Positions 8,729-52,676 of a DNA stretch of 64,000 nt are shown in pieces. The stretch lies in NCBI GenBank assembly GCA_022897995.1, contig GCA_022897995.1_4763.1. One strand, 5' to 3'. Made by a program: the position numbers and the translations under genes. The number at the start of each line of letters is the position of its first letter. The first letter of the stretch is position 1. The DNA comes from a phage. The notes beneath the pieces were generated by a model, which did no database searches, had not been told where the DNA came from, and saw only the letters and a program-made list of their open reading frames with translations.

Positions 8729-8790
8729 TTGACATAAAAGGGAGATTCTCTATAATGGGAGTCTCCCTTTTCTTTTATGAGGATTAAACA
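8729..8790 (+). promoter_or_regulatory. PeSL-like promoter cassette overlapping the gene 39 terminator
   Basis: TTGACA 8729-8734, TATAAT 8751-8756 inside the loop of GGGAGA/TCTCCC stem, then T-run. Confidence 0.5.
8740..8776 (+). terminator. Rho-independent terminator after gene 39
   Basis: GGGAGA...TCTCCC hairpin followed by TTTTCTTTT. Confidence 0.5.
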
Positions 8791-38452: not shown

Positions 38453-40696
38453 ATGATTAAAAATGTTGTTAAGTCTTCCGGTCTGACTGTTCCGTTTGAA
38501 AAAGAAAAAGTAATGAAAATTCTGGAAGCGGCAGCCGAAGGTCATAACGTTGATCCATATGAATTGTTTGATATGGTTGAACCACTTCTGACAGAAGGTA
38601 TGTCTACCAATGATATCCAGAAAGTATTGATTAAGGTCGCCGCAGATAACATTACTGTAGAAACACCTGATTATCAATATGTAGCAAGTAACCTTGCAAT
38701 GTTCGCGCTTCGTAAATCAGTATACGGTCAATTCCAACCTATTGATTTTTATAGCCATATTGAGCGTAATATTGCAACCGGAAAATATGATCGCGAAATT
38801 CTGCAAAAGTATTCCCGCGAAGAAGTGGAATATCTGGAGAAATTCATCGACCATAAACTTGATTTTAAAATGACCTATGCTGGTGCGATGCAGTTAAAAG
38901 AGAAATATCTTGTTCAGGATCGCAGCACTAAGAAAATCATTGAAACACCGCAATTTGCGTATATGCTGATCGGTATGTGCTTGCATCAAGAAGAGACAGA
39001 AAATCGACTTGAACATGTGATTGATTTTTATAATGCTGTTGCGAATAAGCAAATCTCTCTTCCTACTCCGATTATGGCGGGTGTGCGTACTCCAACACGA
39101 CAATTTAGTTCGTGTGTGGTGATTGAAAGTGATGACTCATTGCAGGGTATTAATGAAACCGCAAATGCAATCATCAAGTATATTAGCAAGCGTGCTGGTA
39201 TCGGTATCAACGCTGGCATGATTCGCGCGGAAGGATCTAAGATCGGGCATGGTGAAGTTCGTCATACTGGTGTTATCCCATTCTGGAAGCATTTTCAGAC
39301 TGCCGTTAAGTCATGCTCACAAGGCGGTATTCGTGGCGGGGCAGCGACTCTCTATTACCCAATGTGGCATTTAGAATTTGAAAGTCTTATTGTGTTGAAG
39401 AATAACAAAGGGGTAGAAGACAACCGCATTCGCCATCTTGATTACGGCGTACAGATTAATAACCTGATGGTAGAGCGATTCCTTAAACGGGATTACATTA
39501 CTCTGTTTAGTCCAGATGTTGCGGGTGGCTTGTTGTGGGATCTGTACTTCCGAGATGAGGAAGGTTTCCGCCAGCTTTACGAAAAACTGGAAAAAGATCC
39601 GAGTGTTCGTAAAACTCGTGTTAAAGCCGAAGACCTATTTTTAGCGGTGGCAATTGAACGTTTTAACACTGGTCGAATCTATCCGGCGTTCACAGACAAC
39701 ATGAACAATCACGGGGCGTTTATTCGCAATGTAGCACCGATTAAACAATCTAACCTGTGTTGTGAAATTGCACTTCCTACTAAACCGATGGGTCGTGATG
39801 ATTCAGAGATCAGCCTATGTACTTTGGCAGCATATGTTTTAGGTAATTTCGATATCGAAAATATGGAAGAAGTAGAACGCATTGCTATGGTTATGGTGCG
39901 TGCACTTGACAACCTGTTAGATTATCAGGATTATCCTGTAGAACAAGCTCTGACAGCCAAAAAACGTCGCTCTCTGGGTGTTGGTGTGACTAACTTTGCA
40001 TCATATCTGGCGGATAATTTCTTCACATATGAAGACGCTAACGAGTTTACGCATAAAACGTTTGAACGCTTGCAATATGCTCTGATTAAGGCTAGTGTGC
40101 AACTGGCTAAAGAGAAGGGTGCTTGCGAACTGATGCACGAAACACGTTATGGACGCGGTGAACTGCCTATCGACTGGTACAAAAAGACAGTAGATGAACT
40201 GGTTGATCCGGTGTATGAGATGGATTGGGAAGAACTGCGCGAAGACCTGAAAAAATATGGCATTCGTAACAGTACGCTTTCGGCGCTGATGCCTTGTGAG
40301 TCGTCTTCTCAGGTGTCTAACAGCACAAACGGTATTGAACCGCCTCGCGGGATTGTATCGGTTAAAGGATCGAAAGAAGGGCAATTTAATCAGGTTATTC
40401 CGAACGTAGAGAATAATGCTGATGTTATTGACTTGCTTTGGACACTGATCAAGAAAGGTAACAAGCCTTATCTGACACTGGCAGCGATCATGCAGAAGTT
40501 TGTCGATCAGGCGATTAGTTCCAATACATCCTACGATCCAAGCACTTATAAGACTGGTAAAGTCGATATTGCTGATGTATTAGATGATATGTTGTTTGCT
40601 CAATATTACGGCCTCAAGACACTGTATTACGCTAACGTGCGTGATGGTGCTGATGGTACGGAAGACGCTAGCGAATGTTCATCTTGCAAACTGTAA
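38453..40696 (+). CDS. nrdA: Ribonucleotide reductase large subunit NrdA
   Basis: 747 aa; ATP-cone N-terminus, class I RNR blocks (PDYQYVASNLAMFALRK, SNLCCEI, C-terminal CxxC); no intron. Confidence 0.9.
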   Translation: MIKNVVKSSGLTVPFEKEKVMKILEAAAEGHNVDPYELFDMVEPLLTEGMSTNDIQKVLIKVAADNITVETPDYQYVASNLAMFALRKSVYGQFQPIDFYSHIERNIATGKYDREILQKYSREEVEYLEKFIDHKLDFKMTYAGAMQLKEKYLVQDRSTKKIIETPQFAYMLIGMCLHQEETENRLEHVIDFYNAVANKQISLPTPIMAGVRTPTRQFSSCVVIESDDSLQGINETANAIIKYISKRAGIGINAGMIRAEGSKIGHGEVRHTGVIPFWKHFQTAVKSCSQGGIRGGAATLYYPMWHLEFESLIVLKNNKGVEDNRIRHLDYGVQINNLMVERFLKRDYITLFSPDVAGGLLWDLYFRDEEGFRQLYEKLEKDPSVRKTRVKAEDLFLAVAIERFNTGRIYPAFTDNMNNHGAFIRNVAPIKQSNLCCEIALPTKPMGRDDSEISLCTLAAYVLGNFDIENMEEVERIAMVMVRALDNLLDYQDYPVEQALTAKKRRSLGVGVTNFASYLADNFFTYEDANEFTHKTFERLQYALIKASVQLAKEKGACELMHETRYGRGELPIDWYKKTVDELVDPVYEMDWEELREDLKKYGIRNSTLSALMPCESSSQVSNSTNGIEPPRGIVSVKGSKEGQFNQVIPNVENNADVIDLLWTLIKKGNKPYLTLAAIMQKFVDQAISSNTSYDPSTYKTGKVDIADVLDDMLFAQYYGLKTLYYANVRDGADGTEDASECSSCKL

Positions 40697-40706
40697 AAAA
40701 TAAGTG

Positions 40707-40766
40707 TTGACGCGGGGAGAAATCCCCGCTATAATTCAACCATCAAAAACAAGTGAGGATTTTATT
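40707..40766 (+). promoter_or_regulatory. PeSL-like promoter cassette
   Basis: TTGACG 40707-40712; GCGGGGA-gaaa-TCCCCGC stem 40712-40729; TATAAT 40730-40735. Confidence 0.55.
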
Positions 40767-40934
40767 ATGACCAAATTAAAATGTGTTGCTGTAGATTTTG
40801 AGCTAGCTGATAGCTTTGTTGTCGGTGATGAATATGATGCTCGACATGATGGGGCTTGCTACTACGTTGAGGATGAATACGGCGTAGAATGGGCTATTCT
40901 TCCTGATGATAAATGCTTTGAGGTTGTCGAATAA
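40767..40934 (+). CDS. Small acidic hypothetical protein (55 aa)
   Basis: ATG 40767 with GTGAGGAttttattATG context downstream of cassette. Confidence 0.3.
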   Translation: MTKLKCVAVDFELADSFVVGDEYDARHDGACYYVEDEYGVEWAILPDDKCFEVVE

Positions 40935-41107
40935 TGGCTACTGTATGGTTATTGATTGCAATCAGCAATTCAATGTATAATTACGGAAATATGTCAAGCA
41001 TTGAATTTGCAACAAAGCAGGATTGCGTTAAAGCTCGCGAGATTATCCGCGAAGACAATAAACGCTTTATGAATCTGTACTGTGTTGAAAAGCAGAAGGT
41101 GAACTAA
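40934..41107 (+). CDS. Small protein, tandem paralog 1 (57 aa)
   Basis: MATVWLLIAISNS... hydrophobic N-terminus, two Cys; TAATG overlaps on both sides; below track cutoff. Confidence 0.35.
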   Translation: MATVWLLIAISNSMYNYGNMSSIEFATKQDCVKAREIIREDNKRFMNLYCVEKQKVN

Positions 41108-41274
41108 TGGCTACAATATGGTTATTGCTTTCCGTTAGCGTAGGCTCATATAATAAAGGAACTGTTACCAGCGTGGAGTTTTCATCACATCAAAGTTGTT
41201 TTGAAGCCGTGCAGGAATTGCAACAGGATAACGAAATAAAAAGAAATACTAAGTTCTTTTGTGTTAAAAAGTGA
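41107..41274 (+). CDS. Small protein, tandem paralog 2 (55 aa)
   Basis: MATIWLLLSVSVGS... same architecture as paralog 1. Confidence 0.35.
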   Translation: MATIWLLLSVSVGSYNKGTVTSVEFSSHQSCFEAVQELQQDNEIKRNTKFFCVKK

Positions 41275-41289
41275 TAGTGAGGTGAATTA

Positions 41290-42450
41290 ATGAGCGTATT
41301 TAACCGCGAACATGTTGATATTATGAACGAACCGATGTTTCTGGGTAGTGGGTTGGGTATCGCTCGCTATGATATTCAGCGTCATCAAGTATTTGAAGAA
41401 CTGATCGAAAAGCAATTGTCATTTTTCTGGCGTCCAGAAGAGATTTCACTTGCAACCGACCGCATACAATATCTTAATATGGGTGACGTTGAAAAGCGTT
41501 TCTTTACCGAAAACTTGAAGTATCAGACATTACTTGATTCTATTCAAGGTCGCGCACCGTCCGCAGCATTTGGTCCAATTGTATCTGATCCAACTCTCGA
41601 TACATGGTTGCAAACATGGACATTCAGCGAAACGATTCATAGCCGAAGCTATACACACATTATGCGTAACTGTTTCATTGACCCGGCTAGTGAGTTTGAC
41701 CAGATCATCGATAACCCCGCTATCATGAAGCGAGCGGAATCTATCGGGCAATATTATGATGATGTTCTTTATTGGATTCGTAAGTATGAGAATGCAAAAG
41801 AAGATCTCCGCTATTGGGAAGAACGAGACGACCAGACAGCATTAAATGATGCAAGAATATTTTTTGAAGATACAAAACGAGATCTGATGGCTTCGATTTA
41901 TCTGTGTGCACACTGCGTCAATGCACTGGAAGCAATCCGCTTTTATGTGTCCTTTGCATGTACTTTCAGCTTTGCCGAACGTGGTTTACTGGAAGGTAAC
42001 GCGAAGATCATGAAATTTATTGCGCGTGATGAACAACTTCATTTAAAAGGCACACAATACATTATTCGTCAATGGCAAACAGGGGCTGATGGTGATGAGT
42101 GGAAACAGATTGCGGAAGAACTTGAAGACGAAGCAACGAAAATCTTTCTGGATGTTGTCGAGCAAGAGAAAGAATGGGTAGATCACTTATTCGCAATGGG
42201 GGCAATTCCTAATCTGTCACCGGAAATTCTGAAAACCTATGTAGAATACCTGGCCGATTCCCGTATGCGTGCTGCCGGACTGAAAAGCCCGTTTAGTGTT
42301 CGTCGTCATCCGTTACCGTGGATGCGTAAATGGTTGAACTCTGACGAAGTACAGAATGCAGCGCAGGAAGTAGAGATTATGTATCTGGTATCTCAGGTTA
42401 ATACCGATTTAACAGACGATGACTACAACCGATTCGGGAAATATCTATGA
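41290..42450 (+). CDS. nrdB: Ribonucleotide reductase small subunit NrdB
   Basis: 386 aa; di-iron/tyrosyl radical fold blocks; uninterrupted (no intron). Confidence 0.9.
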   Translation: MSVFNREHVDIMNEPMFLGSGLGIARYDIQRHQVFEELIEKQLSFFWRPEEISLATDRIQYLNMGDVEKRFFTENLKYQTLLDSIQGRAPSAAFGPIVSDPTLDTWLQTWTFSETIHSRSYTHIMRNCFIDPASEFDQIIDNPAIMKRAESIGQYYDDVLYWIRKYENAKEDLRYWEERDDQTALNDARIFFEDTKRDLMASIYLCAHCVNALEAIRFYVSFACTFSFAERGLLEGNAKIMKFIARDEQLHLKGTQYIIRQWQTGADGDEWKQIAEELEDEATKIFLDVVEQEKEWVDHLFAMGAIPNLSPEILKTYVEYLADSRMRAAGLKSPFSVRRHPLPWMRKWLNSDEVQNAAQEVEIMYLVSQVNTDLTDDDYNRFGKYL

Positions 42451-42923
42451 TATATTTTGTCGATTTAGATTTTACGATCACAGATCCAACACATCGACTA
42501 GCAAAGATGCCAACCGAAAATCTTGATAAAGTCGAGTCATGGATCGAATATAACAAGGCATGTGGGGGAGATTCCCCCATTTACGATGTAATTCGTGTTA
42601 TTAATGCCCTTTCCGACAACGGGCATTTGATTTACATCCTCACCGGACGAAGTTCACATGCTTACATGGAAACGGTGGAATGGTTGATCGCTAATGATGT
42701 GTGTTTCGATAAAATCTTTATGAGAGGTCGCAATGATTCCCGTAAAGACTATCACATCAAATTAGAGGTAATTAAATCCTTTGATAAAGATGAAGTGGTG
42801 GGAGTATTCGAAGATAACCCAGAAGTGATTAAAGTTCTCCGAGAAAACGGCTATCGTGTCTTTGACGTAGGAAATCACAAAGATAAGACGCGAGCGGATA
42901 TTGCAAATCACGGTCATGATTAA
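42447..42923 (+). CDS. HAD-superfamily phosphatase-like protein
   Basis: 158 aa; N-terminal VDLDFTITD (DxDxT), later ILTGR and C-terminal Asp; resembles the phosphatase domain of polynucleotide kinase. Confidence 0.5.
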   Translation: MIYFVDLDFTITDPTHRLAKMPTENLDKVESWIEYNKACGGDSPIYDVIRVINALSDNGHLIYILTGRSSHAYMETVEWLIANDVCFDKIFMRGRNDSRKDYHIKLEVIKSFDKDEVVGVFEDNPEVIKVLRENGYRVFDVGNHKDKTRADIANHGHD

Positions 42924-44049: not shown

Positions 44050-44513
44050 ATGATTAATGAGCTAATAGAAAACTATGGATTCGTTAAATATTCATGTTTA
44101 GAGTGTAAAGATGGTGATGTGATTCTACCGCCTCAGAAGAACCGTTTAAATGTTCTTTACGCTATTGTGGTTGATGATGAACTGGTATATATATTGGTCA
44201 GACTGTTAATCTCAGAAAGCGGATCAATTATTACCGGACTAGCATTAACAGACAGACACCAACGGCGGATACTCGCAAGAGTAAGAATATTCATAAGGCG
44301 CTAGAGGAAGGGAAGACAGTAACATTCTATTACCGCCAGTGCTTTGAGTTATATATTGAGAATCCAACGGGTAAAGATATTATAAGCACTGCCGATATCG
44401 AAGAACCTGTTTTGATCACCAAATTTAAACCAGAATGGAACACAAATTATGTCAACAAAAGAAAACAACAAAAAAGTTTTAGCATTGTTCAAAAATCTGA
44501 TGGCACTATGTGA
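44050..44513 (+). pseudogene. denA: Endonuclease II (DenA)-like GIY-YIG nuclease gene interrupted by a frameshift in a (TA)4 tract
   Basis: Frame from ATG 44050 gives ...NVLYAIVVDDELVYI then stops at 44304; the +2 frame from 44190 continues YIGQTVNLRKRINYYR...FELYIENP to TGA 44511-44513; joint is tatatata at 44186-44193. Confidence 0.5.
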
Positions 44514-45618
44514 CGGATCTGATACGTTCTATTACAAAGATGAAATTACGGCGATGCAAACCCGTATGCGCATTTTTAGCTATCTGTACTTGAGCAAACC
44601 GGAAATGTGGAATAAACCAGATGCGTTAGAGTGTCGCGGGATCATGTTTGAAATCGATGATAAAGACCGACCAGTCCGCATTGCATCTCGTCCTATGGAG
44701 AAGTTTTTTAATTTAGGCGAGAATGACCGCGCTCGCTTTAAGCCGGAAGAGGTGGAAATGGTCATGGACAAAATGGACGGTAGTCTAGTAAGCACATACA
44801 TTGATAACGGCTATGTTCAGTTGAAGTCTAAAGCGGCATTGTACTCAAGCCAGGCAGAGAGAGCAAACGGTCTTCTGTATTCAGAGAAGTATGCGGAACT
44901 ACGTGCTAAGATCGCCGATATTGGATCTGATTATACTTTCAACTTTGAATATACAGCACCAAGCAACCGAATTGTTGTAGAATACAACGAACCGTCGCTG
45001 ACACTTCTGAATGTACGCCATAACGTCACAGGAGAGTATGTACCGCATCAAATTATATTCTCCGATGCAATCCTGCGTCCTCATTTGGTAAATGCGTTAC
45101 AGGTTGATTCAGCGCGTTTTAGCAATATTCTTGATGAAGTTCGGGTAGCGGAAGGTATCGAGGGAATTGTTGCACGAACCAAAGACGGTCAGATGTTCAA
45201 GGTGAAAAGTGAATGGTATATTGGTGTGCATAACATTAAAAACACATCGATGTTTCCTAATAACCTGATCTACTATGTAGTAGAAAGCGAAACCGATGAT
45301 TTGCGTGCTGCATATGAAGGTGAACCGGAAGCACTGGAACGAATCGAGCTATTCGAGGAAGCATTCAGGTCTATTCTTCGCAATGCCTTCACGACAGCAA
45401 CAGAATTTTATAACACACACGCGGGAGAAGACAGAAAGACATATGCATCCAATGCGACTATCGAATCACGTAAACATGGTGATGCACAAGCATATATTTT
45501 CATGTGTCTGATGATTGCATTTGATGGTCTTGATTATGACCGTATTCTGGCTTCAATGAAAACTTACTATATACGGAATTATAAGAAACTGATTCCGGCT
45601 GATAAGATTGATTGGTAA
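44449..45618 (+). CDS. rnlA: RNA ligase 1 (T4 gp63/RnlA homolog)
   Basis: 389 aa; ALECRGIMFE, RIASRPMEKFFNLGEN, KxDG ligase motif (DKMDGSLVS), RKTYAS; matches T4 Rnl1. Confidence 0.85.
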   Translation: MSTKENNKKVLALFKNLMALCDGSDTFYYKDEITAMQTRMRIFSYLYLSKPEMWNKPDALECRGIMFEIDDKDRPVRIASRPMEKFFNLGENDRARFKPEEVEMVMDKMDGSLVSTYIDNGYVQLKSKAALYSSQAERANGLLYSEKYAELRAKIADIGSDYTFNFEYTAPSNRIVVEYNEPSLTLLNVRHNVTGEYVPHQIIFSDAILRPHLVNALQVDSARFSNILDEVRVAEGIEGIVARTKDGQMFKVKSEWYIGVHNIKNTSMFPNNLIYYVVESETDDLRAAYEGEPEALERIELFEEAFRSILRNAFTTATEFYNTHAGEDRKTYASNATIESRKHGDAQAYIFMCLMIAFDGLDYDRILASMKTYYIRNYKKLIPADKIDW

Positions 45619-52607: not shown

Positions 52608-52676
52608 TTGACAGGGGAGACACCCTCCCCTATAATATACACATCGAAACGAGATACCAATTAGGAGAATCAAACA
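52608..52676 (+). promoter_or_regulatory. PeSL-like promoter cassette
   Basis: TTGACA 52608-52613; GGGGAG-acacc-CTCCCC hairpin; TATAAT 52631-52636. Confidence 0.6.

Follow-up and report, generated by a model that had tools for sequence, protein, structure and literature searches.

In bacteriophage T4 the slot between the ribonucleotide reductase genes nrdA and nrdB is occupied by an extra gene, mobE, whose start codon overlaps the stop codon before it in an arrangement of the UAAUG type, and translational coupling by UAAUG has been discussed for nrdA and mobE (PMC2988022). In RB49 and phi1 small genes are found in cassettes headed by a promoter-early stem-loop (PeSL), in which a GGGG...CCCC hairpin lies between the -35 and -10 elements of a sigma-70 promoter and is followed by a Shine-Dalgarno sequence. 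Fusions to lacZ demonstrated strong promoter activity, as well as terminator activity, for other PeSLs. Recombination at these elements was proposed to shuffle the cassettes, which belong to a class linked to adaptive ORFans (PMC2839356). RB49 (NC_005066) also carries three small genes between nrdA and nrdB, RB49p233, RB49p232 and RB49p231, all annotated as 'hypothetical protein'; the numbers of these ORFs are absent from the main text of PMC2839356.

Here we analyze a tandem pair of small open reading frames (ORFs), ORF1 and ORF2, located between nrdA and nrdB in a stretch of 64,000 nucleotides of phage DNA (GenBank assembly GCA_022897995.1, contig GCA_022897995.1_4763.1), which we call the window. 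The DNA of the interval 40600-41400 of the window shares 99.1% identity with Escherichia phage UPWr_E1 and 95.4% with RB49. Of the 59 phage records that match this interval, every one checked for taxonomy is a Krischvirus (Straboviridae). Judged by its DNA the source phage is itself a Krischvirus, an RB49-like T4-type coliphage. We conclude that ORF1 and ORF2 are real, probably early-expressed, old tandem paralogues from a family of proteins of about 55 amino acids (aa) that is widespread among phages, and that they form a cassette with a third small gene, ORF0. Our best guess at their role is that of accessory binding proteins, and we give the reading as a whole, of which this role is the weakest part, a probability of roughly 0.55.

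Results

ORF1 and ORF2 are tandem paralogues under purifying selection

ORF1 (40934..41107, + strand) encodes 57 aa starting MATVWLLIAISNS and is the homologue of RB49p232, while ORF2 (41107..41274, + strand) encodes 55 aa starting MATIWLLLSVSVGS and corresponds to RB49p231. Alignment of the two proteins by BLASTP gave 23 identities in 55 positions (42%) and 71% positives with E = 2e-17, which bears out the original prediction of a pair of paralogues at this position. Both ORF junctions upstream consist of the sequence TAATG. The stop codon of ORF0 (40932-40934) overlaps the ATG of ORF1 by one base, and the stop codon of ORF1 (41105-41107) overlaps the ATG of ORF2 in the same way. The links to the neighboring genes by TAATG that had been proposed are therefore present upstream and within the pair but not toward nrdB. 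There ORF2 ends in TGA at 41274 and the nrdB ATG lies at 41290, leaving a 15-nt spacer that contains the nrdB Shine-Dalgarno sequence GAGGTG (41279-41284).

The comparison with the nrdA-nrdB interval of related phages that the original prediction had suggested finds both ORFs conserved. At the amino acid level ORF1 is 98-100% identical in 53 Krischvirus records (100% to the RB49 protein), and ORF2 82-98% identical across the genus (89% to the RB49 protein). We calculated the ratio of nonsynonymous to synonymous substitution (dN/dS) by the method of Nei and Gojobori over 14-16 Krischvirus sequences, obtaining values of 0.05 for ORF1, 0.27 for ORF2 and 0.20 for ORF0, compared with 0.07 for the first 100 codons of nrdB. 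Third codon positions account for 10 of the 14 variable sites in ORF1, and 16 of 28 in ORF2. No region with enough sites gave dN/dS > 1 in this comparison. Codons 1-47 of ORF2 gave 0.21-0.26, and the idea of positive selection on the ORF2 helix was rejected because dN/dS there is 0.26. Over the final eight codons of ORF2 the ratio comes to 18, a meaningless figure, as these contain almost no synonymous differences. Shine-Dalgarno sequences precede both genes, GAGG at 40920-40923 for ORF1 and AAGGTG at 41096-41101 for ORF2. The low dN/dS ratios, the variation at third positions and the presence of Shine-Dalgarno sequences before both starts together indicate that ORF1 and ORF2 are real protein-coding genes under purifying selection. 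The opposite strand of the interval contains no ORF of 30 aa or longer, and no Rfam family matches the interval.

The two ORFs had been described as missed by the list of ORFs that accompanied the DNA. Both do fall below the 60-aa cutoff of that list, but the omission is an artefact of the cutoff, and public annotations call both genes. The three small genes of RB49 have the same overlapping coordinates, and every other Krischvirus record that we opened annotates the small genes as in RB49. RB49p232, RB49p231 and their Krischvirus orthologues are the same genes, in the same nrdA-nrdB position and with the same overlapping starts, and there is no material difference from the pair in the window, which is another isolate of the same genus. 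In the record of phage kaaroe both proteins are placed in pVOG VOG8694. The profile phrog_5579 ('unknown function') matches ORF1 with E = 6.8e-24, residues 2-53 aligning with positions 1-52 of a profile of 52 positions, and ORF2 end to end with E = 9.4e-25. Both genes and their family are thus already in public databases as entries without function, and the novelty of finding them is low. A literature search on locus tags, family identifiers and Krischvirus transcriptomes found no experimental expression data.

The duplication is old and has been lost secondarily in two phages

The pair was first taken to be a recent duplication. The sequences contradict this. In addition to the 42% amino acid identity, the DNA of ORF1 and ORF2 is only 59% identical over 53 aligned codons (49% at third codon positions). 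The two copies are found together in about 53 Krischvirus records, and nearly every genome of the genus has them. The duplication is evidently old.

A single copy is found in phages G37-3 and FL20. Their gene is chimeric, with the first codons of ORF1 type (ATGGCTACTGTATGGTTATTG) following the 3' end of ORF0, and the remainder of ORF2 type. This is what would be expected from homologous recombination across an 11-nt sequence, TATGGTTATTG, that is shared near the 5' ends of the paralogues, and recombination there removes exactly one repeat unit. The chimeric gene therefore shows that the single-copy state is a secondary deletion, and not a state that preceded duplication. By virtue of the precise deletion in these two phages ORF1 is naturally dispensable, and hence accessory. 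In phage JEP8 the otherwise invariant Cys31 of ORF1 (L022 533-706) is replaced by phenylalanine (C31F), in a genome in which ORF0 is truncated; either the sequence is in error there or the phage tolerates a loss-of-function allele.

Two more distant loci were informative. In a metagenomic, Krischvirus-like relative (L026) NrdA and NrdB are 85% and 82% identical to those of the window. Between nrdA and nrdB lies a single family member, with 47% identity to ORF1 and 53% to ORF2, directly after an identical PeSL core and with no ORF0. In a second contig (L031) NrdB is 92% identical to that of the window, while the gene in the position of ORF2 (37-204) has no more than 49% identity to it. On this short contig the preceding ORF has the C-terminus ...IFFHDEVEEVK and again overlaps by TAATG. 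The nrdA-nrdB slot itself is evidently stable, and its occupant diverges or is exchanged much faster than the neighboring genes.

A further tandem pair was found on an unrelated contig carrying an integrase gene (L015). The two genes (2046-2243 and 2240-2437) both have GTG starts and overlap by 4 nt, and are followed by an unrelated basic ORF of 64 aa. From this independent pair it follows that tandem pairs arose at least twice.

The proteins belong to a sharply defined family of small phage proteins

The extent of the family was explored by an exhaustive HMMER profile search of 1.84 billion representatives with a cutoff of E ≤ 1e-3, which gave 54 matches. Two apparent multi-domain relatives, P0022 (775 aa, eight matching stretches) and P0032 (351 aa, five stretches), were rejected as spurious, being degenerate tandem-repeat translations that lack the conserved residues. 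The remaining relatives, about 50, are 42-113 aa in length, and nearly all are of 50-70 aa. Their consensus may be written M..(T)VWLLIA.S.G.YN.G.V..(V)E.F.(S/T)...C...(about 18 residues)...CV. Despite a mean column identity of 19%, C31 and C50 (C52 in ORF2) are invariant in all 51 aligned sequences, and W5, L7, G18 and F25 are nearly so; ORF1 and ORF2 carry all six of these residues. The conserved cysteines noted from the pair alone are thus a property of the whole family.

The family is catalogued as PHROG 5579 and pVOG VOG8694, and its function is uncharacterised. The phrog_5579 profile matches 44 of the 51 relatives, and no Pfam domain or informative name was found among the members. ORF0, ORF1 and ORF2 have no match in NCBIfam, a sequence search of the PDB returned no solved relative, and the 64-kb window contains no member besides ORF1 and ORF2. 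Word-indexed protein searches returned near-identical sequences only, and a search of IMG/VR only two loci. A suspected resemblance to DUF1482 (PF07358), a family of small enterobacterial prophage proteins, was discarded, as only one of the 51 sequences matched it, at E = 0.11, and ORF1 and ORF2 did not.

Where are the other members located? Searches by tblastn placed members in Drexlerviridae (JeanPiccard and Henu7), in a phage of the Autographiviridae and in Vibrio, Salmonella and Klebsiella phages. All those for which the context was examined are in phages or phage-like contigs, often near genes of replication or nucleotide metabolism. One overlaps the end of a DnaB-like helicase gene upstream of PolA, another overlaps the end of a ligase-like gene (a faint Pfam match only) upstream of a primase-helicase, a third overlaps the end of a PNK gene and a fourth follows an RNA ligase gene. 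The other contexts are uninformative strings of small ORFs.

The hydrophobic N-terminus is predicted to be a strand of a soluble domain

The original prediction took the hydrophobic N-terminus to indicate a membrane-associated protein. Structure prediction suggests otherwise. AlphaFold2 modeled ORF1 from an alignment of 18 sequences with a mean predicted local distance difference test score (pLDDT) of 81.6, giving strands at residues 5-11, 20-25 and 46-52 and a helix at 28-42. The model of ORF2, from 32 diverse sequences, has a mean pLDDT of 94.1 and the same topology, with a short second helix. In BFVD many uncharacterised phage proteins of 50-70 aa share the predicted fold, with TM-scores of 0.7-0.85. 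ORF1 and ORF2 are thus predicted to adopt a soluble strand-strand-helix-strand mini-domain, with the hydrophobic N-terminus forming a strand of the sheet.

The properties of the segment itself point the same way. The hydrophobic run is about 10 residues long, and the median length of the uncharged run is 13 residues among the 51 members. The best 19-residue Kyte-Doolittle mean averages 0.99, and the threshold of 1.6 is reached by just one member. In 43 of the 51 there is no Lys or Arg before the hydrophobic run, and the near-invariance of W5 and L7 is not typical of signal peptides. The segment thus has neither the span of 18-20 residues of a transmembrane anchor nor the positive n-region of a Sec signal peptide. 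The proposed membrane association is probably wrong, and the proteins are probably soluble.

In the models C31 lies in the first helical turn, on an i/i+3/i+4/i+7 hydrophobic stripe (C31, A34, V35 and L38 in ORF2). C50/C52 is in strand 3, on the same strand face as the conserved hydrophobic residue two positions earlier. By the geometry of a strand-helix-strand crossover the invariant cysteines would be adjacent, and might form a disulfide, metal or redox site; that they are close together in the fold is probable from the topology. Strand 1 is hydrophobic at every position and should leave one face of the sheet exposed in the monomer, and because of this we infer a dimer. Its subunits could be identical, or ORF1 could pair with ORF2, an arrangement with which translational coupling of the paralogues would fit well.

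The pair is part of a PeSL cassette with ORF0

The three small genes are preceded by an element that fits the definition of a PeSL given in PMC2839356 (40707..40735, + strand). A -35 element TTGACG (40707-40712) is separated by a 17-nt spacer from a -10 element TATAAT (40730-40735), in agreement with the sigma-70 consensus at 11 of 12 positions. The GC-rich hairpin GCGGGGA-GAAA-TCCCCGC (40712-40729) lies within the spacer, with a z score of -2.9 in RNA fold prediction, and is followed by GAGG and the ATG at 40767. In Makalu_003 the element is annotated as 'terminator'. The cassette thus has the same elements as those of RB49 and phi1, namely the sigma-70 promoter, the hairpin between -35 and -10, the Shine-Dalgarno sequence and the small genes. 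It differs from the cassettes of PMC2839356 in having three genes, and in its location, which is not a hyperplastic region but the interval between two genes for ribonucleotide reductase.

Exact TTGAC-N16-18-TATAAT sites occur 11 times in the window, all on the + strand, compared with 0.26 expected by chance; they start at 8729, 9711, 11669, 27814, 31484, 32041, 34400, 35468, 35851, 40707 and 52608. The spacer of the last of these (52608-52636) likewise contains a GGGG...CCCC hairpin, and this site is probably a further PeSL. Inside ORF1 there is a promoter-like site (40952-40981) that matches at 10 of 12 positions, but sites of this kind are just as numerous in the region as expected from shuffled sequence.

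The first gene of the cassette, ORF0 (40767..40934, + strand), encodes an acidic protein of 55 aa homologous to RB49p233, and matches phrog_16302 with E = 2.6e-41. Despite being under purifying selection, the gene carries a frameshift or truncation in kaaroe, JEP8 and FL20. The possibility that ORF0 is a third, diverged paralogue was rejected, since its hhalign probability against the family profile is 0.25% and the hidden Markov model of the family does not match it. ORF0 also has cysteines at positions 31 and 50, which on comparison of the sequences is evidently a coincidence.

From the published properties of PeSLs we would expect the host sigma-70 RNA polymerase to start at this promoter early in infection, and the hairpin to attenuate read-through from nrdA. 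A single message would carry ORF0, ORF1, ORF2 and probably nrdB, and the UAAUG overlaps would couple the translation of the three small genes, favoring matched amounts of their products. By analogy with the described elements, early transcription of ORF0-ORF1-ORF2 is probable.

Insertions in the nrdA-nrdB interval, and neighboring genes

In phage Delraymugoa a DNA methyltransferase gene is inserted after nrdA, with the same PeSL on both sides (L003 605-635 and 1500-1530), as predicted by the cassette-shuffling model. Judged by this arrangement, the locus is a clean natural example of PeSL-mediated cassette insertion as proposed by Arbiol et al., 2010 (PMC2839356).

A gene of 179 aa lies between ORF2 and nrdB, within the slot that mobE occupies in T4, in G2494 (L020 1379-1918) and in G37-3 (L009 1679-2218), annotated as 'putative HNH endonuclease' in the former and 'hypothetical protein' in the latter. 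The first 100 codons of nrdB in these two phages have a DNA identity of about 86%, compared with 93-99% in other intact sequences; this divergence would fit co-conversion of the flanks by homing. In L026 (753-3940) nrdA consists of two ORFs separated by a gene that may encode an endonuclease, to judge from a faint Pfam match of the I-HmuI/NUMOD type. The arrangement resembles the nrdA of Aeromonas phage Aeh1, which is split by mobE. ORF1 and ORF2 themselves are not endonucleases, and have no similarity to MobE of T4.

The local gene order in the window is td, nrdA, the three small ORFs, nrdB and a PNK/phosphatase-like gene. The gene for the large subunit of class Ia ribonucleotide reductase, nrdA (38453..40696, + strand), is an ORF of 747 aa, and that for the small subunit, nrdB (41290..42450, + strand), one of 386 aa. 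Both carry these names in relatives, nrdA in RB49 among them. The end of nrdB is overlapped by a PNK/3'-phosphatase-like gene of 158 aa (42447-42923), and further downstream is an ORF of 389 aa (44449-45618), which may resemble T4 RNA ligase 1. Members of the small-protein family adjoin PNK or RNA ligase genes in Henu7 and L015 too.

Discussion

ORF1 and ORF2 have been retained in tandem through nearly the whole of Krischvirus. What might they do? Our preferred reading is that each is a dispensable cytoplasmic accessory protein, made early, that would bind and modulate a host or phage protein. The assignment of this role is the weakest step of the argument.

Several other explanations have been weighed against it. 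That the ORFs are chance reading frames, or lie in non-coding sequence such as a spacer or a regulatory RNA between nrdA and nrdB, might be entertained for frames shorter than 60 aa with no published expression data, but the significance of the paralogy, the low dN/dS with its third-position bias, the homologues in unrelated phage families, the confidently predicted folds and the lack of an Rfam match have effectively refuted it already. The model of the original prediction, small proteins that are membrane-anchored or exported by virtue of an N-terminal anchor or short signal peptide, is quite unlikely. The remaining 40 or so residues would then fold outside the cytoplasm, stabilized by a C31-C50 disulfide, and perhaps act on an envelope protein as MzrA does on EnvZ. 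Against this stand the short hydrophobic run and its modeling as a strand, and ORF1 and ORF2 have neither the sequence of MzrA (PDB 4pwu) nor its N-terminal transmembrane helix and periplasmic domain. An anti-defence protein, or an inhibitor that serves host takeover, in an arms race would be a special case of the accessory-binder reading, in which the two copies have diverged to block different forms of the same host target. It would suit genes that are small, probably early, dispensable and located in a PeSL cassette. The copy at the ORF2 position in L031, so divergent beside a well-conserved NrdB, suggests allele replacement or rapid evolution, tandem pairs have arisen at least twice, and small anti-CRISPR proteins are among the weak structural neighbors. 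The Dmd antitoxin of T4 (PDB 5hy3_B), an early protein of 60 aa that blocks the RnlA and LsoA toxins, is of similar size and its sequence also ends in a cysteine-containing segment (...KVCEVDCRG), but neither ORF1 nor ORF2 has sequence or profile similarity to it. Against the anti-defence reading, positive selection is not seen within the genus in either gene, the near-identity of ORF1 in 53 genomes is unusual for a gene in an arms race, and the proposal is without a known target. We therefore regard it as unlikely in this specific form.

The invariant cysteines raise a different possibility, that of a minimal redox or metal-binding protein serving enzymes of nucleotide metabolism or replication. 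The cysteines at the helix N-terminus and in the strand could be a redox pair, or two subunits might share a Cys4 zinc or Fe-S site. In Krischvirus such a protein could support ribonucleotide reductase, either by reducing the C-terminal CxxC of NrdA or by maintaining the cofactor of NrdB, and elsewhere it could serve a neighboring enzyme. In E. coli the NrdB cofactor is maintained by YfaE, and thioredoxin offers a second comparison. The idea draws on the invariance of the pair and on the position of C31 in the first helical turn after a conserved Ser/Thr. Members of the family are found between nrdA and nrdB both in Krischvirus and in two metagenomic relatives at a greater distance. At other loci a 4-nt overlap joins them to the end of a gene for a helicase, a ligase-like protein or PNK, suggesting translational coupling to an enzyme gene. 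However, the cysteines are 19-21 residues apart with no CxxC, there is no match to a redoxin or ferredoxin family, and with three strands and one main helix, and no Pfam or NCBIfam match, the proteins lack the features of a thioredoxin or glutaredoxin. For many members, in Drexlerviridae and on other contigs, the stretches examined contain no ribonucleotide reductase gene. Two natural isolates do without ORF1, and JEP8 apparently tolerates C31F. On balance we consider this explanation improbable. Its boldest form is more improbable still: PHROG 5579 would comprise dimeric proteins of about 55 aa with a catalytic or metal-binding cysteine pair that act directly on an enzyme of nucleotide metabolism or replication, with an ORF1-ORF2 heterodimer acting on ribonucleotide reductase in Krischvirus. 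If true, few known redox or metal cofactor proteins would be as small, and a phage ribonucleotide reductase would have gained a new accessory subunit.

The accessory-binder reading is thus the one that we prefer. As it stands the result is an ordinary one, two small conserved phage genes, already annotated, in a catalogued family. It carries a useful caution for the reading of small ORFs by eye, that a hydrophobic N-terminus may be a strand of a sheet. The locus also illustrates several ways in which the gene content of phages changes: a single interval of 600 bp combines an old tandem duplication, its precise loss by recombination between paralogues, a PeSL-flanked insertion and the insertion of a homing endonuclease. 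The family is broad, sharply defined and uncharacterised, and is a tractable target for the study of small proteins.

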